Below, one piece after another: positions 7,809 to 60,389 of a DNA stretch of 64,000 nt. Positions within the stretch are counted from its first letter, which is position 1. Every line of letters starts with the position of its first letter. The translations under genes were made by a program, and so were the position numbers. The DNA lies in contig UQQL01000001.1 of NCBI GenBank assembly GCA_900543275.1, forward strand, positions 39,674 to 103,673, written 5' to 3'. The notes under the pieces are model-generated. The model did not search any database. It was not told where the DNA came from and saw nothing but the letters and a program-made list of their open reading frames with translations. The stretch is from an uncultured Collinsella sp. (GTDB lineage Bacteria; Actinomycetota; Coriobacteriia; Coriobacteriales; Coriobacteriaceae).

Positions 7809-8063
7809 ATGGAGTACGGATCGTTTCAGGCCGAGGAATTCGGCGACTTGCAGCGCCTGGTCGACGGACTGTTTTACGACCGCCACGCCATCGACCGCCT
7901 GGATCTGATCGTACAGGCCGAAATCTTGGACCTGGCGCCCGACCTCATGGAGATCGTGAATCTTTTGCCGCCCGGCTACTACGACCGCCAGTCACTTTGC
8001 GACCAGCTCAACTCCGCCTTGGCCGCCCACGGCTGGGGCGCCGTCTACGGCACCGTGGAATAA
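7809..8063 (+). CDS. small hypothetical protein
   Basis: GGAGG followed 5 nt later by ATG at 7809. Compact 84-aa ORF, followed by the family A hairpin and a terminator. Confidence 0.5.
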   Translation: MEYGSFQAEEFGDLQRLVDGLFYDRHAIDRLDLIVQAEILDLAPDLMEIVNLLPPGYYDRQSLCDQLNSALAAHGWGAVYGTVE

Positions 8064-8067
8064 AACC

Positions 8068-8094
8068 AGTCATTGGGGACGTTCTTAAATGACT
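8068..8094 (+). repeat. family A hairpin motif copy 2 (agtcatt-GGGGACGTTCTTAA-atgact)
   Basis: 7-bp stem around the conserved 14-nt loop, directly after the stop codon. Confidence 0.6.
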
Positions 8095-8095
8095 A

Positions 8096-20958: not shown

Positions 20959-21176
20959 GGGCGACTCCTCATCTGACGGACGGCGCGCCTGCGGGCAGCG
21001 CCATAGTTTGAGCCGTACCAGTATACCGAGCCGCGCGGACACCGACGCAAATCACACCACGACTCCGTGCGCCACCGTCAGGCCCGCCCCAGCGGATTTG
21101 GCGCAATGGGTTCAGGTTACTTTGCACCAATCTATTGACAATCACGAAACCGCCGATGTCATGGCAGCAGCAGCGA

Positions 21177-21276
21177 GCGGCGGCCAGAGCGAACAAATTG
21201 GCATGAAAAGAGGGCGGCATAGACCTTTTGGTCATGCCACCCTCTTTGAATGACAAGTTGTCGCTCTGGCCGCCGC
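21177..21276. repeat. nested inverted-repeat element (19-bp outer arms plus inner hairpin) between uppP and pcrA
   Basis: gcggcggccagagcgaacaa ... ttgtcgctctggccgccgc, with inner aaagagggcggcat/atgccaccctcttt. Confidence 0.5.
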
Positions 21277-21291
21277 GCAGCGTCAACCAAG

Positions 21292-22272
21292 TTACAGGCC
21301 GAGCATAGGCTCCAGAACGAAGAAGTACGCGAGCACCACGATGCCCAGGATGATGCGGTAGACGCCGAAGCACTTGAAGTCGTGACGGCGAACGAAGCCC
21401 ATGAGCCACTTGATGGCAATGAGCGACACCACAAAGGCGACGACGCAGCCCACGCCCAAGATGGCGATCTCGTTGGTGCCGAACGCGCCGCCCTTGATGA
21501 AGTACTTGACCAGCTTGAGCGCACTCGCGCCAAACATGACAGGGATGGCCAGGAAGAACGTGAACTTAGACGCCACCGAGCGCGTGCAGCCCAAAAGCAG
21601 GCCGCCGATGATGGTAGAACCGGAGCGAGACGTACCAGGCACCAGCGAAAGCACTTGGAAGCAGCCGATACCCAGCGCAGTCTTCCAGCTTAGATCCTCG
21701 AGCGTGGCGATGGAACCAAAGTCCAGATTCTCGTCATCGTCCTCATCCTCAGCGGTAGCCGTGGCGGGCGCCGCAAAGTGCGCACCGGCGGGACGTTCAC
21801 CCGACACCACAGCACGCGAACCAAACGAACCGGCAACGGCCATTTCCTCGCGCTTGCTCGCGCGCCAGTTCTCGATCACGATAAACAGCACGCCGTACAC
21901 GATGAGCGCCAGCGCCACGACGGGAGCATTGTAGAAATGCTCCTCCATCCAGTCGTTGAGCGGCAGGCCGATCGCCGCCGCAGGAATGCAACCGAGCACA
22001 ATCTTGCCCCACAGCACCCAGGTGTTGCGACGGCCCTCCTTGCCCTTGCTGGGCGAGAACGGATTGAGCTCATGGAAGAACAGCACACAGACGGCCAAAA
22101 TGGCGCCAAGCTGAATCACGACCAGGAACATGTTCCAGAACGTCTCGCTCACGTTCATCTTGACGAACTCGTCCACCAAGATCATGTGACCGGTCGACGA
22201 AACAGGCAGCCATTCGGTGATGCCCTCGACCAGGCCCATGAAGGCAGATTTTAAAAGCTCGATGATATCCAA
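21292..22272 (-). CDS. uppP: undecaprenyl-diphosphate phosphatase UppP/BacA with an acidic insertion
   Basis: GLVEGITEWLPVSSTGHM signature. TTG start after GAGGGGG. The 100-aa upstream extension in the track is not coding. Insert AEDEDDDENLDFG. Confidence 0.8.
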   Translation of the reverse strand: MDIIELLKSAFMGLVEGITEWLPVSSTGHMILVDEFVKMNVSETFWNMFLVVIQLGAILAVCVLFFHELNPFSPSKGKEGRRNTWVLWGKIVLGCIPAAAIGLPLNDWMEEHFYNAPVVALALIVYGVLFIVIENWRASKREEMAVAGSFGSRAVVSGERPAGAHFAAPATATAEDEDDDENLDFGSIATLEDLSWKTALGIGCFQVLSLVPGTSRSGSTIIGGLLLGCTRSVASKFTFFLAIPVMFGASALKLVKYFIKGGAFGTNEIAILGVGCVVAFVVSLIAIKWLMGFVRRHDFKCFGVYRIILGIVVLAYFFVLEPMLGL

Positions 22273-22520
22273 AGGGACCCCCTCGTTAGACACCCGCCGA
22301 TATTGTTCTGCGGACGGTGCGGGCGATGTCCCATTATCAACCGTTGGCGGCGCGCCTGCGCCTACCCTTACCAAAAAACTCGCCCGTTCACAGAATTGCG
22401 AGCGGTCAAACCCAAATCCTTGGGTATAACTGCAACAAGATAAAGTGTCCGGCGGCCAACGCGCCCGCGCCCGCCCGATGCACGAGCCCCGCGCCCGTGC
22501 GATAGACCAAGGAGGAAACC

Positions 22521-22958
22521 ATGAACGAGGGCTACACCAAGGTATTTGTTTCACTCGACGGTACTGAACAGCAGGATTTTGTGCTCGCACGCGCCATCAA
22601 GGTCGCCGCGAACAACGGCGCCAAGCTAATCATCGGCCACGTTATCGATTCCACGGCGCTCGAGAGCGCCGGTTCCTATCCGGTCGATCTGGTCAACGGC
22701 CTAGAGGAGGCATTTAAGAACTCCATCGCCAAGCAGCTCGAAGAGGCCAAGGCCAATCCCGACATTCCCGAGGTCGAAGTCATGATTCGCGCCGGCCGTA
22801 TTCGTGAGACGCTCAAAGACGAGATGCTCGACGTGGTCAAGCCCGACCTGGTGCTCTGCGGCGCCCGCGGCCTGTCCTCGATCAAGTATGCGCTGCTGGG
22901 TTCGATTTCGACGTTCCTGCTGCGCAATACGGACTGCGACATTTTGGTCGTGAAGTAG
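22521..22958 (+). CDS. universal stress protein UspA family
   Basis: USP fold (KVFVSLDGTEQQDF...GARGLSSIKYALLGSIS); AGGAGG RBS. Confidence 0.85.
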   Translation: MNEGYTKVFVSLDGTEQQDFVLARAIKVAANNGAKLIIGHVIDSTALESAGSYPVDLVNGLEEAFKNSIAKQLEEAKANPDIPEVEVMIRAGRIRETLKDEMLDVVKPDLVLCGARGLSSIKYALLGSISTFLLRNTDCDILVVK

Positions 22959-29482: not shown

Positions 29483-29558
29483 GCAGAGATTATTTTGACG
29501 ATATGGTCAGGCGACCGAACAGTTTAATGGGATAGAGAAACATCCCATTAAGGGTTTT

Positions 29559-29652
29559 CCAAGTGCCCGAGATTGCCCCGAAAGAGGAGCGCCGCGTACT
29601 AAATGTACGCAAGCGACGGTTTGAGGGGCAAGGTCGGGTGCTTGGGAAAGCC
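29559..29652 (-). ncRNA. candidate structured RNA element (family B copy A), 3' of purH
   Basis: About 85% identical to 57396..57488. It has three long-range helices with compensatory changes against copy B and an inner 6-bp hairpin GCGTAC/GTACGC whose extension uses U-G pairs only on the minus strand. Confidence 0.5.
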
Positions 29653-29653
29653 T

Positions 29654-31261
29654 CTAGTGCCTAAAATGTCTGGCTCCGGTGAAGACCATCGCAATACCAT
29701 GCTCGTTGCAGGCCTGGATGCTCTCGTCATCGCGCTTGGAGCCGCCGGGCTGGATGATGCAGGTCACGCCGTGCGCGGCAAGCACGTCGACGTTGTCGCG
29801 GAACGGGAAGAACGCGTCGCTTGCACAGGCAAAGCCGCCCTTCTCCACGCCCTCGCGCTCGCAGAAGTCCTCAGCACGCTCGCAGGCCAGCAACGCGGAA
29901 TCCACGCGGTTGGGCTGACCGGGGCCCATGCCAATGCCGGCCTTACCCTTGGAGACCAGGATGGCGTTGGACTTGACGCCCTTGCAGACCTTCCAGGCAA
30001 ACTCGAGCTCGGCCATCTCGGCGTCGGTGGGCTTACGGTCGGTGGGGAACGTAAAGGTCGCGGGGTCCTCGGTCACGTGGTCGACTTCCTGCACCAGCAT
30101 GCCGCCGTCGATGGAGCGCAGCTCCACATGGGCACCGTGGTCCACGCCGCCGGTAGCCAGCACGCGCAGGTTGGGGCGCTTGGCCATGCGCTCGAGCGCC
30201 TCATCGGTGTAGCTCGGGGCGATGATGACCTCGACGAACTGCTTGTTCTGATCGGCAAAGTGCTCAACCAGCTCAAAGGGAACCTCGCGGTTGCAGGCGA
30301 TGATGCCGCCGAAGGCGCTCTTGGGATCGCAGGCGAAGGCGCGGTCGTAGGCGGCCGTGATGTCCTCGGCAACGGCGGAACCGCAGGGGTTCTGATGCTT
30401 GAGGATCACGCAGGCCGGCTCGTCGAACTCGCGGACCAGGTTCCAAGCGGCATCGGCGTCCAGATAGTTGTTGTAGCTGAGCGGCTTGCCCTGGATCTGC
30501 TCGGAGCCCACGAGCGGGAACTGAGAGCTCGCGGTGTTCTCGCAGCCCTCGGCAAAGCGATAGACCGTGGCCTTCTGCTGCGGGTTCTCGCCATAGCGCA
30601 GGTCGTCGACCTTTTCCAGCGAGATCTCGAGCTTGGCAGAGGTGTCCGCCACGTCGCTTGCCTGGGCGGCAAGCCAACGGGAGATAGCCGTGTCGTAGGC
30701 GGCGGTGGTCTGGTAGACCTTCACCTGCAGGCGACGACGGGTGGAAAGCGTGGTGCAGCCACCGGTCTCGCGCATCTCGGCCAGGACGGCATCATAGTCG
30801 GCCGGGTCGGAGATGACGGTAACGCTCGCGGCGTTCTTGGCGGCAGAGCGCAACATGGAGGGGCCACCGATGTCGATGTGCTCGATGGCATCCGCAAAGG
30901 TGACCTCGGGGTTGGCGACGGTCTTCTCGAACTCGTACAGGTTGACGACGACCAAGTCGATCAGCTTAATGCCGTGCTGAGCGGCCTCCTGCATGTGCTG
31001 CTCGGAATCGCGGCGGGCCAGCAGCGCGCCGTGAACCTTGGGGTGCAGGGTCTTAACGCGGCCGTCCATCATCTCGGGATAGCCCGTGAACTCCTCGATG
31101 GGGGTTACGGGAACGCCCGCGTCCTCGATGGCACGAGCCGTGCCGCCCGTAGAGATGATCTCGACGCCAAAGTCATCGACCAGCGTCCGTGCGAAATCGA
31201 CGACGCCCGTTTTATCGGTAACCGAGATCAACGCGCGTGCGATCTTCACATCAGATCCCAT
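29654..31261 (-). CDS. purH: bifunctional AICAR transformylase / IMP cyclohydrolase
   Basis: MGS domain [10 protein letters not shown] and the AICARFT core, 535 aa; GGAGGA RBS. Confidence 0.95.
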
Positions 31262-34525: not shown

Positions 34526-34646
34526 AGGCACATCCTTTGTCTGTGGTACCAGTAGCGTCATTGTCCCACGTTTGCGAGTTCATGTGACGAACATCTAGGT
34601 CAGCGGAGCGTCAAAACGGGACAAAAGTCACGCCCGCCGCCGGCAC

Positions 34647-34672
34647 CTGGGGACGTTCCTTATCTGCCGGCA
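34647..34672 (+). repeat. family A motif copy 4 (GGGGACGTTCCTTATCTGCCGGCA, degenerate)
   Basis: Shares the GGGACGTTCCT-A-CTGCCGGCA core with copy 1. Confidence 0.45.
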
Positions 34673-34860
34673 ATCTGGGACACTCCTTGGCATAGCCCGC
34701 TCCGGCAATAGATACCACTTCATAGCTCCATCACAGGTGTAGCGGCTTTGTGTGGGCGCGGCATGCGCTGATTGAGCCGCCAGTTGAGGGGCATAAAGCA
34801 GTTGAGCGAAAACGGTTTGCCCCTTTGCCGTCCGCTTGAGGATCATGTCCCCCTTTTCCG

Positions 34861-45142: not shown

Positions 45143-45227
45143 GGGGGCGTGGCGGAATTGGCATACGCAGGGGACTTAAAATCCCTCGCCGCAAGGATTG
45201 TGGGTTCGAGTCCCACCGCCCCTACCA
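45143..45227 (+). tRNA. tRNA-Leu (anticodon UAA), type II with long variable arm, CCA encoded
   Basis: Acceptor GGGGGCG/CGCCCCU, anticodon stem GGGGA/UCCCU with loop CUUAAAA, T-arm GUGGG-UUCGAGU-CCCAC, discriminator A, then CCA. Confidence 0.85.
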
Positions 45228-45239
45228 TGTAGTGCTTAC

Positions 45240-45276
45240 GAGCCCGTGTCCCCCAGGGATGCGGGCTCATTTCTTT
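45240..45276 (+). terminator. terminator hairpin after tRNA-Leu
   Basis: gagcccg-tgtcccccagggatg-cgggctc then atttcttt. Confidence 0.6.
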
Positions 45277-45405
45277 AAGATGCCGGTGGGGCTCGAACCC
45301 GCGAGGGGGCGAGCGTCAAGCGGACGCGCAGCGTCCGTAGCGAGCCGGCGAGGACGCCGGCAGGCAGCCGAAGCCGGTGCGGATTTGCGCAACAAATACG
45401 CAGAT

Positions 45406-45471
45406 GTCCCACCGCCCCTACCATTTGGCTTTTACGGGCCCGTGCCCCCTGGGGATGCGGGCTCGTTTCTT
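45406..45471 (+). repeat. direct repeat of the tRNA-Leu 3' 18 nt plus a copy of its terminator hairpin (att-like remnant)
   Basis: gtcccaccgcccctacca recurs exactly at 45406-45423. The following roughly 48 nt are about 80% identical to 45228-45275. Confidence 0.7.
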
Positions 45472-45491
45472 CTGGATGCCGTTAAGCCTCT

Positions 45492-45560
45492 AAGTTGCGG
45501 TGGAATAGTTCCTGTTTTGGCAGTTTATCAGCCCATTTAGGAACTATTTCACCGCAACTT
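45492..45560. repeat. 22-bp inverted repeat hairpin in an AT-richer stretch
   Basis: aagttgcggtggaatagttcct ... aggaactatttcaccgcaactt with one mismatch and a 25-nt loop. Confidence 0.55.
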
Positions 45561-55506: not shown

Positions 55507-56418
55507 ATGTCCGCTTGCCCGCTGGTCGATTGTCACACCCACACCTCGTTTTCGGATGGCCATGCCTCGTTTGAGGACAACGTCCGCGCTGCTGCCGCCG
55601 CCGGCTGCCGCGTTATGGTCTCGACTGACCACCTCACCCTGCCCGCCAGCATGGACGCCAACTGCGAAGTGCAGGTTGTCGAGGGCGACCTGACGGCGCA
55701 TCGCCTGGCGTTTGAGGACGCCCGCAGGCTTGCCGCGCAAATCGCGCCGGAGCTTGAGCTTATCTATGGCTTTGAATGCGACTGGTACGAAGGTTGCGAG
55801 CCTTTGGTTGAGGGCTGGTCCGCGGGTGCCATAGTGCGCTTGGGCAGTGTGCACTGGATTGGCGACCCGGGCGATATCATGGCCGGCGCTGCGGGTACGG
55901 CGGGAACGGAGGGCGTCGCTCGCCCTGATACGCCCGATTCGCTCTGCGGCTGGATCGACGACGACACCAACCTGCATGTTTGGGAAAACCTGGGCGTGCG
56001 CGGCGTGTGGGAGCGCTACGTCGACGACTGGTGCCGTGCTTGCGAAAGCTCACTCAACTTTGATGTAATGGCCCATCCCGACCTGGTCATGCGCTTTTCG
56101 AAGGAAGGCTTTGCGCCCGACTTTGACCCCGCGCCGTTTTGGCAGCAGATGGCCGAGTGCGCCCATGACACGGGCCGGCGCGTTGAGGTCTCGACCGCCG
56201 CACCGCGCAAGGGCCTCGATGACTACTATCCCGCGACCGGATTGCTGCGTTGCTTCGCCCACGCCGAGGTGCCAATCACCTTTGGCTCGGACGCACACCG
56301 CGCCTGTGACATCTGTTGGAATATCCGCGAAGCGCAGGCCCACGCCTACGACTGCGGTTATCGAACCTTCGACATCCCCCACCCCACCGGAGAATGGGAG
56401 TCCACGCCCCTCGCCTAA
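55507..56418 (+). CDS. hisK: PHP-family histidinol-phosphatase (HisJ/HisK type)
   Basis: PHP motifs (VDCHTHTSFSDGH, MVSTDH, FGSDAH). Adjacent to the his operon. AAAGGAG RBS. Confidence 0.7.
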   Translation: MSACPLVDCHTHTSFSDGHASFEDNVRAAAAAGCRVMVSTDHLTLPASMDANCEVQVVEGDLTAHRLAFEDARRLAAQIAPELELIYGFECDWYEGCEPLVEGWSAGAIVRLGSVHWIGDPGDIMAGAAGTAGTEGVARPDTPDSLCGWIDDDTNLHVWENLGVRGVWERYVDDWCRACESSLNFDVMAHPDLVMRFSKEGFAPDFDPAPFWQQMAECAHDTGRRVEVSTAAPRKGLDDYYPATGLLRCFAHAEVPITFGSDAHRACDICWNIREAQAHAYDCGYRTFDIPHPTGEWESTPLA

Positions 56419-56421
56419 GAT

Positions 56422-56450
56422 TAGTCGTTGGGGACGTTCTTAAACGACTA
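56422..56450 (+). repeat. family A hairpin motif copy 5 (tagtcgtt-GGGGACGTTCTTAA-acgacta)
   Basis: Same loop as copy 2. The stem carries compensatory changes (cat/atg to cgt/acg). Overlaps the hisE stop codon. Confidence 0.6.
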
Positions 56451-56765
56451 GTGGCGGCGGGCATTGAGTTCGCCGGCCAGTTCGTCGAGGGTGATGCCGT
56501 AGCGTTCGAGTGTCACGAGCAAGTGATAGATCAGGTCGCCGGCCTCGTAGCGAATGTGATCGTGGTCGTTATCCTTGCAAGCCATGATAACCTCGCTCGC
56601 CTCCTCGGCAAGCTTCTTGAGCAGCTCGTCCTCGACATCGGTCAGCAGACGGGCGGTATAGCTCTCCTGCGGCGACGCATCGCGACGGCCGTGAATCACC
56701 TCAGCAAGGCCGGTCAAGGTCTCGCCGATATTTCCCGGCTGCACGTTAGCGGTTCTGACTCCCAT
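56448..56765 (-). CDS. hisE: phosphoribosyl-ATP pyrophosphatase
   Basis: MazG-like HisE (LAEEASEVIMAC...EAGDLIYHLLV). Confidence 0.9.
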   Translation of the reverse strand: MGVRTANVQPGNIGETLTGLAEVIHGRRDASPQESYTARLLTDVEDELLKKLAEEASEVIMACKDNDHDHIRYEAGDLIYHLLVTLERYGITLDELAGELNARRH

Positions 56766-56780
56766 GGTTATTTCCTCTCG

Positions 56781-57008
56781 TTACTGCAGCGTAAAGTAGG
56801 TACCGGCCTCATCGAACCGAGGCTTTGCACCCTTCTTCCCAAAGAACCCATCGATGACGGCATGGGCCTCATCGAGCCTTTCTTTCTCGGTCTCGAGCCA
56901 AAGCGACTGTGCCCCGCAGGCATCGGTCAGATGCACGCGGCACGGCACGCCCGCACGGAGGAGCTCGGCGTTACAATCGGCGACTTCGAACGGCGTCACG
57001 ACCCTCAT
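56781..57008 (-). CDS. small hypothetical protein (75 aa, possibly DUF2007-like), translationally coupled to hisI
   Basis: ATGA overlap with the hisI stop. GGGGGAG lies 4 nt upstream. A beta-alpha-beta-like pattern. Confidence 0.5.
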
Positions 57009-57349
57009 CGCGCTCCCCCTTCCACGCGCTTAAAGAAGCAGGTACGGTTGCCGGTGTGGCAGGCCGGACCCGGCGAGTCGACCTTGACCAGCAGCGTATC
57101 GCTATCGCAGTCGGCCCAGAGTTCCTTGACCTCCTGCATATTGCCGCTCGTCGCGCCCTTGTTCCAGAGCTCTTGGCGGCTGCGGCTCCAAAACCACGTG
57201 GTGCCGGTCTTGAGCGTCAGCCCCACCGATTCCTCATTCATCCAAGCAACCATAAGCACCTCACCGGTGTCATACTGCTGAACCACACAGGGAATCAGCC
57301 CGCGGGCGTCGTATTTAAGATCAGCAGCTTCTACTACCTCAGTCATCAT
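57005..57349 (-). CDS. hisI: phosphoribosyl-AMP cyclohydrolase
   Basis: [24 protein letters not shown] and CHTG zinc motif. The ATG at 57349/57346 after GGGAG is preferred over the TTG in the track. Confidence 0.9.
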
Positions 57350-57395
57350 TTCTCCCAAGTAATAACAGTAAGCCCCACAGGTCGGCGAGGGTTGT

Positions 57396-57488
57396 CCAGG
57401 TGCCGCAGGTTGCCGCGAAAGAGGAGCGACGCGTACTTTGGTACGCGAGCGACGGTTTGAGCGGCAAGATGCGGTGCCTGGGCAAGCC
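57396..57488 (-). ncRNA. candidate structured RNA element (family B copy B), between hisF and hisI
   Basis: Paralogous to 29559..29652. Covarying helices: CCAGG/CCTGG, CCGCA/TGCGG and TTGCCGC/GCGGCAA here, versus CCAAG/CTTGG, CCCGA/TCGGG and TTGCCCC/GGGGCAA in copy A. Confidence 0.5.
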
Positions 57489-57494
57489 GCAGCG

Positions 57495-58277
57495 CTAGAA
57501 GTCCAACCTGACAGGGATGCCCTGCGAGGCCATGTACTCCTTCACCTGGCGAATGCTGAAGGTTCCAAAGTGAAAGACGCTGGCCGCCAGTACGGCGTCG
57601 GCTTCGCCCTCGATCACGCCCTCGGCAAAATGCTCGAGCGTGCCCACGCCGCCGCTCGCGATGACGGGGATTGGCACCGCGCGCGCCACGGCGCGGGTGA
57701 GCGCCAGGTCAAAGCCAGCCTTGGTGCCGTCGCGATCCATACTGGTCAGCAGAATCTCGCCGGCGCCGCGACGAGCCGCCTCCTCGGCCCATGCCACTGC
57801 ATCGATACCCGTGGCGTTGCGGCCTCCTGCGGTAAAAACCTCCCACTTGTCGGCATCCGGCTGCCCAGGCAGGCCGACGCGCTTGGCATCGATCGCCACG
57901 ACCACGGCCTGGCTGCCAAACGCCGCGGCAGCTTGGCTGATCAGCGACGGGTCACGCACGGCGGCAGAGTTGAGCGATACCTTGTCGGCACCGGCCGCCA
58001 CCATGGTTCGCATGCCCGCCAGGTCGCGGAAACCGCCGCCCACGGTATAGGGAATAGCGAGCTCCTCGGCCGCGTGCGCCGCCATCTCGATGGTCGTCGC
58101 GCGGTTGTCGCTCGTAGCGGTAATGTCCAGGAAGACGACCTCGTCTGCACCCTCGCGGTCGTAGGCACGGGCAAGCTCCACCGGATCGCCCGCATCGCGC
58201 AGGCTCACAAAGTTGACGCCCTTGACCACACGGCCGTCCTTGACGTCTAGACAGGGAATCACGCGCTTGGTAAGCAT
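57495..58277 (-). CDS. hisF: imidazole glycerol phosphate synthase cyclase subunit
   Basis: Canonical HisF TIM barrel ([16 protein letters not shown]). Confidence 0.95.
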
Positions 58278-58280
58278 GGG

Positions 58281-59024
58281 CTACTCCTCCCCTCGGGCGG
58301 CGGCCAACGCCTGTACCAGCGTAAAGTTGCCCTCGTAGAGCGCACGGCCGGTGATGGCACCTTCAATCGCGCCCTCGCCCACCGCGGCGAGCGCGCGGAT
58401 GTCGTCGAGCGTCGAGATGCCGCCCGAAGCCACGACAGGAAATCCCGCGACCTCGGCCACATGGCGATACGCCGCCACATCGATGCCCGTCTGCATGCCA
58501 TCGCGCGCGATGTCGGTATACACCAGATGCTTAAAGCCCAGCTCGGAAAGCTGCGCCACGGCATCGTCGAGCGCCACGCCCGCGCCGTCGCGCCAGCCAT
58601 TCACCTTGACCTGACCGTCGCGCGCGGCAATATCTGCCACCAACAGCTCGCCAAAGCCTTGGGCTGCCACCTCGGCAAAACCCGGCTCAGTCACCAGCAC
58701 GGTGCCCAGTGCGATGCGGCGTGCACCGTAGCCGGCCAGCTCGTCGATGCGCGCGAGCGAGCGGACACCGCCGCCCACGTCCACGGACAGGCCGTCGACG
58801 CCGCAGATAGCCTTAATCGCCGCCGAGTTGGCAGCGCACGCGTCCTCGTCCTCGCCAAAGGCAGCGGACAGGTCGACGACATGCACCCAGTTCGCGCCCT
58901 GCTCGGCAAACGAGCGGGCGACGGCGACGGGGTCGTCGGAATATACCTTGCAGCGGCTGCGGTCGCCGCGCTCCAGGCGCACGACCTTGCCACCGATCAG
59001 ATCGATTGCGGGAAACAGGATCAT
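58281..59024 (-). CDS. hisA: ProFAR isomerase
   Basis: MILFPAIDLIGGKVVRL. Confidence 0.95.
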   Translation of the reverse strand: MILFPAIDLIGGKVVRLERGDRSRCKVYSDDPVAVARSFAEQGANWVHVVDLSAAFGEDEDACAANSAAIKAICGVDGLSVDVGGGVRSLARIDELAGYGARRIALGTVLVTEPGFAEVAAQGFGELLVADIAARDGQVKVNGWRDGAGVALDDAVAQLSELGFKHLVYTDIARDGMQTGIDVAAYRHVAEVAGFPVVASGGISTLDDIRALAAVGEGAIEGAITGRALYEGNFTLVQALAAARGEE

Positions 59025-59722
59025 CGGCCGGCCTCCTCGACGATGTTGACAAAGTTCTTAAGGATGCGCTGTCCCAGCGCCGAGGATTTCTCGGGATGGA
59101 ACTGGCAGCCCCACACGTTGCCGTGGCGCACGATGCACGGAAAGCTCCGCGTATAGTGCGTGCGCGCCAGCACATCGGCGGCATCGGCATCGCCTGCCAC
59201 CGCGTAGCTGTGGGTAAAGTACATGTTGGTGCCCTCGGCAAAACCGGCGAGCAGCGGATCGGCCGCACCGGCGGGCGTCATATGCACCTGGTCCCAGCCC
59301 ACGTGCGGCACCTTCAGGCGACTCGACTCCAAGCGCGTGCACGAGCCGCGCATAATGCCCAGGCCATCGACCCAGGGGCCGCCAGCCTGCTCGGGGGTGC
59401 CGCCATCCGCGACCACGCCCTCGTCCGCAGGCACGCCCTCGTTGCCGCGCTCAAAAAAGAGCTGAAGACCCAGGCAGATGCCGAGCAGCGGAGTTCCGGC
59501 GGCAACGGCATCGAGCACGGCGGCCTCCTCGCCGCTCTGGCGCATAAAGGCGATCGCGTCGTAGAACGCGCCCACGCCCGGGATAACCAGGCCGTCGGCG
59601 TTGCGGATCTGTTCCGGATCGTCCGACGTGCAAGCGGCGGCACCGGCGCGCGCAAGCCCGCGCACGACGCTCGACAAGTTGCCCTTGCGGTAGTCGACCA
59701 CCACGATCTTCGGTTCGCCCAC
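59021..59722 (-). CDS. hisH: imidazole glycerol phosphate synthase glutamine amidotransferase subunit
   Basis: Class I GATase (GICLGLQL Cys, HPEKS His). GTG start chosen after GGAGGAGGGG. The ATG at 59740 is an alternative. Confidence 0.85.
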   Translation of the reverse strand: MGEPKIVVVDYRKGNLSSVVRGLARAGAAACTSDDPEQIRNADGLVIPGVGAFYDAIAFMRQSGEEAAVLDAVAAGTPLLGICLGLQLFFERGNEGVPADEGVVADGGTPEQAGGPWVDGLGIMRGSCTRLESSRLKVPHVGWDQVHMTPAGAADPLLAGFAEGTNMYFTHSYAVAGDADAADVLARTHYTRSFPCIVRHGNVWGCQFHPEKSSALGQRILKNFVNIVEEAGR

Positions 59723-59746
59723 GCGACCCCTCCTCCTCATCTTGTC

Positions 59747-59788
59747 AAAAACCACCACAAAGGGGACAGGCGCCTTCGTGGTGGTTTT
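59747..59788 (-). terminator. intrinsic-terminator-like hairpin between hisB and hisH
   Basis: On the minus strand: aaaaccaccac-gaaggcgcctgtcccctt-tgtggtggttttt. An 11-bp stem followed by a U-run. Confidence 0.45.
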
Positions 59789-59801
59789 ACCCTTGCGGCG
59801 G

Positions 59802-60389
59802 TTACAGTGAGCCCTTGGTGCTGGGGATGCCCTGCACGCGGGGATCGAGCTCGCAGGCGCGGCGCATCGTGCGACCAACGGCCTTAAAGGCGGCTTCGAT
59901 AATGTGGTGCGAGTTGCCGCCCGCCAGCTCGCGCACGTGCAGCGTGAGCTTGGCGTCACGCGCGAAGGCATAGAAGAACTCGACGGCTAGCTCAGTATCG
60001 AAGCTGCCCACGCGCTCGGTCGGCACGGGCAGCTCGCAGTAGGCCTGCCCGCGGCCCGAAATATCAACAGCAGCCATCACGAGCGTCTCGTCCATGGCGA
60101 TCGCCGCGTCGGCAAAGCGCGTAATGCCCACCTTGTCGCCCAGCGCCTGGCAAAACGCCTCGCCCAGCACAATGCCCGTGTCCTCGACGGTATGGTGCGC
60201 ATCGACCTCGACGTCGCCCACCGCGTGCACCGTCAGATCGAACAGACCATGGCGGCCAAAAGCGTTGAGCATGTGGTCGAAAAACAGCACGCCGGTCGAG
60301 ATATCGCACACGCCGCTTCCGTCCAAGTCGAGCTTTACGACAATGTCGGTCTCGCCCGTCTTGCGGGTTACCTCGGCATAGCGGTCCAT
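59802..60389 (-). CDS. hisB: imidazoleglycerol-phosphate dehydratase
   Basis: IGPD motifs (DLTVHAVGDVEVDAHHTVED). Confidence 0.95.
   Translation of the reverse strand: MDRYAEVTRKTGETDIVVKLDLDGSGVCDISTGVLFFDHMLNAFGRHGLFDLTVHAVGDVEVDAHHTVEDTGIVLGEAFCQALGDKVGITRFADAAIAMDETLVMAAVDISGRGQAYCELPVPTERVGSFDTELAVEFFYAFARDAKLTLHVRELAGGNSHHIIEAAFKAVGRTMRRACELDPRVQGIPSTKGSL

Follow-up and report, generated by a model that had tools for sequence, protein, structure and literature searches.

Interspersed hairpin repeats of Collinsella and the copy adjoining the hisF stop codon

Introduction

ERIC and Correia elements exert orientation-dependent effects on neighbouring mRNA. REPs lie mostly downstream of open reading frames (ORFs), vary between strains and carry compensatory changes in their hairpins (PMC3733652, PMC3116915), and the phyla reported for tagged REPs do not include Actinomycetota, to which the class Coriobacteriia belongs (PMC3733652). 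In E. coli, REPs have been reported to lower translation when a stop codon lies fewer than 16 nt away, as described in the passage of PMC12306157 that cites Liang et al. 2015. For the his operon of Coriobacteriales, promoter control by the HisR repressor has been reported (PMC9413887).

Here, we analyzed a structured element located between hisF and hisI in a contiguous 64-kb stretch of Collinsella DNA (the window). A sequence-only reading of the window had described two copies of the element, the one in the his operon being copy B, and had proposed that it could modulate hisIE expression relative to hisF or serve in processing or stability. We found that copy B belongs to a repeat family dispersed among unrelated genes of the genus, and that this family pairs better on one strand than on the other.

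Results

The element between hisF and hisI

The positions of the repeat copies and of the surrounding genes are presented in Table 1. Copy B, which runs from about 57380 to 57494 (roughly 115 bases, GGTCGGCGAG...CCGCAGCG), lies up against the hisF stop codon, which is a TAG (57495-57497). Its ends were set by comparing filled with empty hisF-hisI junctions and by the common flanks GTC(A/G)GCGAG...GCAGCG, and a covariance model matched 57377-57501 with 136.2 bits (E = 3.5e-28). The sequence-only reading was right that a real, non-random structured element occupies this spacer, and placed it at 57396-57488, a narrower extent than the unit delimited here.

Table 1 Positions of repeat copies, genes and other features (window coordinates unless a locus is given)
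Feature	Position	Strand	Basis or remark
Copy B, full repeat unit	57380-57494	+	+ is the better-folding strand; his mRNA has the reverse complement
Copy B, long imperfect hairpin	57389-57488	+	stems 57389-57416 with 57461-57488; inner hairpin 57431-57446
GAAAGAGGAGCG, internal loop, 5' side, copy B	57417-57428	+	exact match
AGCGACGGTTTGAG, internal loop, 3' side, copy B	57448-57461	+	alignment of copies
Copy A	29551-29653	+	directly after purH stop codon; covariance model 123.3 bits
purH	29654-31261	-	
Copy C	21165-21289	+	divergent subfamily, core fully paired; covariance model 45.9 bits, E = 2.2e-7
hisB	59802-60389	-	
Terminator-like hairpin AAACCACCAC...GTGGTGGTTTTT	59747-59787	-	in hisB-hisH spacer, 59721-59801
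hisH	59021-~59720	-	
hisA	58281-59024	-	
hisF	57495-58277	-	TIGR00735, E = 3.7e-109
hisI ribosome-binding site GGGAGAA	57350-57356	-	read from sequence
hisI	57005-57346 (likely); 57005-57358 (maximal ORF)	-	NF000768, E = 2e-49
RDAC-family gene, 75 aa	56781-57008	-	between hisI and hisE
hisE	56448-56765	-	stop codon 56448-56450
Small hairpin repeat TAGTCGTTGGGGACGTTCTTAAACGACTA	56416-56450; 8061-8095		related arms at 586-626 and 34640-34680
tRNA gene	45143-45224		
88-nt direct repeat	45210-45297; 45406-45493		80% identical
Y1-like gene, 270 aa	L136:20955-21767	-	C. aerofaciens TSDC17.2-1.1; Y1_Tnp PF01797, E = 2e-8

The distance from hisF to hisI depends on the start codon of the latter. The 136 nt given by the sequence-only reading applies if hisI starts at TTG 57358, the first possible start, whereas the gap is 148 nt to ATG 57346, the likely start since it sits behind the GGGAGAA ribosome-binding site and is picked by gene callers in relatives. 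The spacer had also been taken for the only sizeable one in the operon, which is incorrect: about 80 nt separate hisB from hisH and hold a terminator-like hairpin. A near-identical hairpin comes after a repeat copy in another locus (L118), and an IS3 element is inserted in the hisB-hisH spacer of C. aerofaciens TSDC17.2-1.1.

Further features of the window were recorded on the side. The RDAC-family gene between hisI and hisE is found in three related his loci (L121-123) and is missing from four others (L124, L125, L127 and L129). There is also another small hairpin repeat, TAGTCGTTGGGGACGTTCTTAAACGACTA, one copy of which covers part or all of the hisE stop codon; in L049 its motif is found downstream of an element. 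In addition, the first unit of an 88-nt direct repeat begins within a tRNA gene, at its 3' end, so that the repeat resembles a duplication of the att type or what is left of a tRNA.

Copies are dispersed among unrelated Collinsella genes

The core pattern of the element occurs twice in the window against 0.06 occurrences expected. A covariance model was built from the alignment of copies; it recovered further divergent copies and raised the number in the window from two to three, the third being copy C, which sits 2 nt past the stop codon of a minus-strand gene (21292-22590).

Scanning one genome per species for the exact pattern yielded at least 120 loci, and the matches listed were all from Collinsella. 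Clustering of these loci by their flanks resolved at least 25 genomic contexts. The genes upstream of copies include purH, hisF, guaB, cysS, pheS (at the pheS-pheT junction), dtd, proB and lacB/rpiB, together with genes for NAD+ synthase, 6-phospho-beta-glucosidase, a copper ATPase and double-cubane reductases, and an amino-acid ABC-transporter operon carries copies at both of its internal junctions. All contexts are intergenic, between co-directional or convergent genes, and in nearly all of them the element, or its small hairpin, is found within 0-8 nt of the stop codon, which sometimes falls inside the stem base. Specific targeting of TAG was considered and rejected, for TAG stands at 16 of 27 junctions and makes up ~51% of Collinsella stop codons anyway (among sampled ORFs of the window and L001-L130, TAG ~51%, TAA ~43% and TGA ~6%).

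Copy density is modest and uneven, with three copies in the 64-kb window versus one in 300 kb of strain TSDC17.2. Many copies occupy orthologous sites across many GTDB 'species', and this placement also fits old, retained and perhaps useful insertions. Two copies in atypical orientation were seen, in L043 and L055, each paired with a typically oriented copy of another subfamily 0.5-1.1 kb away, and each of the two inverted pairs (L043, 4121-5398; L055, 1041-1759) brackets one gene.

A covarying hairpin with exchangeable parts

The predicted RNA fold of copy B has a free energy of -72.4 kcal/mol on the plus strand (z = -5.9) and of -52.9 kcal/mol on the minus, mRNA-sense strand (z = -3.3). In the RNAalifold consensus of 94 distinct copies, 20 of the 35 pairs show compensatory double changes, and paired cells amount to 98.1%, compared with 83.6% in shuffles (0 of 500 reached the observed value) and 28-43% when the partners were slid.

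The repeat unit is ~105-125 nt long. The long hairpin and the TGAAA...TTGA junctions are shared between subfamilies, and the flanks GTCAGCGAGCG ... CGCGCAGCGTCGA are present in many copies. In the divergent copies the internal loop (GAGGAGCG / AGCGACGG) is swapped for a fully paired stem of other sequence. Some copies have an added small hairpin and tail: in type II copies (L006, L023, L016, L074, L030, L070, L097 and L113) the stop codon is separated from the big hairpin by a small one with a covarying stem, GTTACGCGGTTTTACCAAACCGCGTAAC, and past the big hairpin comes a conserved tail (...ACATCGGCG). L001 holds a tandem half-copy. This modular, recombining make-up points to a repeat family rather than to a ligand- or gene-specific RNA.

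The CU-rich stretch that the sequence-only reading described as single-stranded is, in the his mRNA, the complement of GAAAGAGGAGCG. It is invariant within the main subfamily only, and in sister subfamilies its place is taken by an ordinary paired stem of other sequence. The string quoted earlier for copy B, GCGCUCCUCUUUCG, is that of copy A; copy B has GUCGCUCCUCUUUCG, which lies ~46 nt from the hisI ribosome-binding site and not ~60 nt.

Searching the window against Rfam 15 at the gathering threshold (T-box, his leader, ZTP and Collinsella-1 included) returned only tRNA and Ref55 matches located elsewhere. With the element region at E <= 10 there was just one 16-nt chance match, and the composite copy in L023 gave nothing relevant at E <= 5. 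The supplementary tables of a human-microbiome RNA-motif paper (PMC8040213) name candidate motifs of Collinsella without giving their sequences.

The his junction is polymorphic in relatives

To compare the site, hisF-hisI junctions were taken from genomes with HisI homologues. The element is present in L121-124, the HisI proteins of which are 92-95% identical to that of the window. In L125/126 (HisI 86%) the gap is 0 nt, with the hisF TAG followed immediately by the hisI ATG, and in L129/130 (85%) a 39-nt gap is found without the element. L127 (84%) holds a copy with a different inner core, and L128 (84%) a main-type core that has decayed by a 21-nt deletion taking out the inner hairpin. The hisF genes of these last two are 98.1% identical and their outer stems match, and their inner cores are unrelated. 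The copy is an insertion behind the hisF stop codon, made in one lineage of Collinsella. It is not required at this junction, given its absence there in related genomes, and its sequence is not conserved at the site, since even strains whose hisF genes are 98% identical differ by an exchange or partial loss of the inner core. No target-site duplication was visible between filled and empty his junctions, in genomes only ~80% identical in which small duplications could be erased.

A second polymorphic site is a convergent intergenic region (L015, 783-1000; L137, 8492-8808). It carries an element in L015, whereas in TSDC17.2 (L137) it holds 315 nt of unrelated sequence that contain a long inverted repeat of their own.

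These results bear on the idea that copy B is a cis-regulatory RNA specific to his, in which the hairpin or the CU-rich loop would tune hisIE against hisF in response to a signal. The element does fill the spacer directly upstream of hisI, its CU-rich stretch resembles an anti-Shine-Dalgarno sequence, and purH and hisF, both followed by copies, are tied to AICAR metabolism. However, the element also follows genes in at least 25 unrelated contexts and, in relatives, is missing from the his junction or present there in decayed form, conservation of the CU-rich loop does not extend from one subfamily to the next, the predicted mRNA fold leaves that stretch unpaired with the hisI ribosome-binding site, and Rfam, ZTP and T-box included, has no match. 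We consider such a role very improbable. The ZTP/AICAR link between purH and hisF was dropped after the other gene contexts surfaced. What stands of the proposal is a generic effect on processing or stability, which is possible because the element necessarily lies within the his transcript. The observation made by the sequence-only reading is confirmed, and its regulatory interpretation is largely without support.

The better-folding strand is mostly antisense to the upstream gene

RNA minimum free energies favor one and the same strand of the element, the plus strand of the window and antisense to the his mRNA, in 29 of 30 independent contexts (mean -68.9 versus -53.7 kcal/mol, ~15 kcal/mol apart), and DNA parameters give the same preference for copies A and B. 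In the alignment, 349 G-U cells at 13 pair positions were counted versus 30 A-C cells at 7. The better-folding strand is antisense to the stop-abutting gene in 23 of 26 contexts (~88%). In two flipped contexts the fold asymmetry travels with the element, and it is therefore a property of the element and not of its relation to the host gene. The mRNA-sense version still forms a predicted hairpin of -47 to -53 kcal/mol, C-rich and with tandem A-C mismatches. Compared with a gene co-orientation of ~72% in 300 kb of C. aerofaciens, a stretch with one copy, the 23 of 26 antisense contexts do not separate a replication-linked from a transcription-linked bias. A purely mRNA-level role does not explain the consistent pairing of the antisense strand.

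Given this asymmetry, the functional molecule might be the plus strand itself, as a structured antisense RNA over the 3' end of the gene or as a site in single-stranded DNA on which a recombinase or transposase acts. The copies would then be strand-specific sites next to stop codons, with a loose analogy to integron attC or to the ends of IS200/IS605. The stabler fold, the excess of G-U cells and the retention of the asymmetry in the flipped contexts would agree with this, as would the exchange of inner cores between near-identical strains. Against it, a promoter scan upstream of and inside the element found no promoter-like site (a candidate -10 falls in a variable loop), no terminator follows the element on the plus strand, the surroundings showed no active Y1 transposase or integrase, attC core sites are absent, and the viral contigs and phage records scanned contained zero copies. 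On balance we regard this explanation as unlikely.

The composition of the opposite strand raises another explanation, in which the element is a Rho-loading or polarity module and Rho loads after the stop codon when the downstream gene is poorly translated. The mRNA-sense strand is indeed C-rich and G-poor in 31 of 31 copies (C:G ~1.5, GC skew 0.21), copies lie directly after stop codons, and Collinsella has a gene for a large Rho. Normally, though, Rho utilisation sites lack structure, in contrast to the hairpin predicted here, and copies lie within essential operons (pheS-pheT, his), where termination would be costly; the argument is one of composition only, and we hold the explanation to be quite improbable.

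An intrinsic terminator or attenuator inside the operon would likewise place a GC-rich hairpin downstream of a gene, and UGUUUUG comes after one of the flipped subfamily copies (class 3_3). Neither strand of copies A and B, however, has a T-run past the large hairpin, copy A is accompanied by a separate canonical terminator further downstream, and essential genes lie downstream of many copies, all of which makes this an extremely improbable function.

Discussion

Copy B is one unit of a genus-wide family of interspersed hairpin repeats that resembles REP/REPIN, MITE and ERIC-type repeats, and in our judgement it is likely to be co-transcribed passively with its neighbors. The his-locus copy was inserted between two genes that abut or lie close together in related genomes. 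Under this reading, it would be a passive part of the his mRNA, which contains the reverse complement of the better-folding strand. The weaker hairpin present in the mRNA would start 0-4 nt past the hisF stop codon and would break any translational coupling between hisF and hisI, so that hisI would presumably rely on its own ribosome-binding site. Since the stem begins less than 16 nt after the stop codon, the hairpin could, as reported for REPs of E. coli (PMC12306157), hold up ribosomes at termination or keep 3' exonucleases from passing; C. aerofaciens encodes RNase Y, RNase J and PNPase. Stalling or 3' protection would shift the hisF/hisI stoichiometry independently of histidine. The orientation bias is strong and leaves the mRNA with the weaker hairpin, perhaps because a highly stable one so close to the stop codon is selected against. 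The strandedness built into the fold may point to spread through a single-stranded intermediate.

The means by which the repeats spread was looked for in the neighborhood of copies. Clustering of ORFs across the at least 120 loci revealed no recurrent transposase, only ABC ATPase paralogues recurring, and no cognate insertion sequence was found for the element; IS3, IS21, IS30 and IS1249 are annotated in C. aerofaciens. A Y1-like gene of C. aerofaciens TSDC17.2-1.1 (Table 1) was evaluated as a mobiliser. The best NCBIfam match of its product is RAYT, at 37 bits versus a cutoff of 80, and the protein has a C-terminal HTH, an HUH motif that reads H-V-R and a tyrosine motif that is apparently lost. 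The candidate was rejected as being below the RAYT cutoff, seemingly catalytically dead and without an adjacent copy. These negative results count against the reading of copy B as a passively carried interspersed repeat, as do the modest copy density, the orthologous sites shared by many GTDB 'species' and the consistent pairing of the antisense strand.

We give a small but appreciable chance to the speculation that the family is a new strand-specific, single-stranded element (DNA or antisense RNA) whose hairpin would be selected on the strand opposite the host gene, and that homes just past stop codons and is moved or exchanged by an enzyme of Coriobacteriia. If this is true, its mechanism would parallel attC or IS200-type recombination with an unrelated sequence. 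The pairing of the antisense strand beside stop codons would strike a specialist as odd, and it is the sole feature that we consider worth following up.

Returning to the reading of copy B as a passively carried repeat unit, the element matters little for the his operon, and annotators should not label it a histidine regulator. HisI database entries of 156-173 aa (P0001, P0002, P0009, P0014, P0015 and others), as against ~110 aa, are overlong because gene callers ran the ORF through the repeat. More broadly, a previously undescribed structured repeat family, with no Rfam match and no describing paper found, is present in one of the most prevalent actinobacterial genera of the human gut, and it may serve as a convenient strain marker.

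Among known repeat systems, the Collinsella repeat resembles the RAYT-mobilised REP, BIME and REPIN sequences of E. coli and Pseudomonas in being extragenic, mostly downstream of ORFs and between co-directional or convergent genes. A hairpin of ~100 nt is shared with REPINs; compensatory stem changes (20 of 35 pairs here), subfamilies and presence or absence among strains are shared with REPs and REPINs, and REPs are classically found in ABC-transporter and his-type operons near stop codons. Unlike REPs, however, the repeat has no clear GTAG or CGTC tag beside its stem: the type II flank GCAGCGTCGA does contain CGTC, at a distance of 7 nt from the stem, copy B reads GCAGCGCTAG there, and the flank is missing from type I copies. 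Its arms are not themselves short palindromes, conservation lies in the middle and the far flanks and not at the arm ends, and no RAYT gene flanked by copies was seen in the at least 120 loci or in 300 kb of C. aerofaciens. Copy number, judged from three copies in 64 kb and one in 300 kb, appears to be much lower than that of REPs, which often exceed 100 per genome.

In length (100-150 nt units) and in forming long RNA hairpins when co-transcribed, the repeat is similar to ERIC, the Correia elements of Neisseria, the pneumococcal RUP and BOX and the SMAG of Stenotrophomonas. It differs from these repeats and from MITEs in that neither a target-site duplication (between his junctions of genomes ~80% identical) nor a cognate insertion sequence was identified, and in that it abuts stop codons, with ~88% of contexts in one orientation to the upstream gene. 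Integron attC sites also lie directly after the stop codon of an ORF, form imperfect hairpins in which structure rather than sequence is conserved, and have their fold selected on the strand antisense to the ORF. The Collinsella repeat, unlike attC, lacks RYYYAAC/GTTRRRY core sites and ends in GTC(A/G)GCGAG ... GCAGCGTCGA, and its hosts are core housekeeping operons, at conserved positions, and not cassette arrays, with no integrase seen; we take the likeness to attC as a resemblance only. Taken together, the Collinsella repeat is filed here among the interspersed palindromic repeats, as a member that belongs to no named family.
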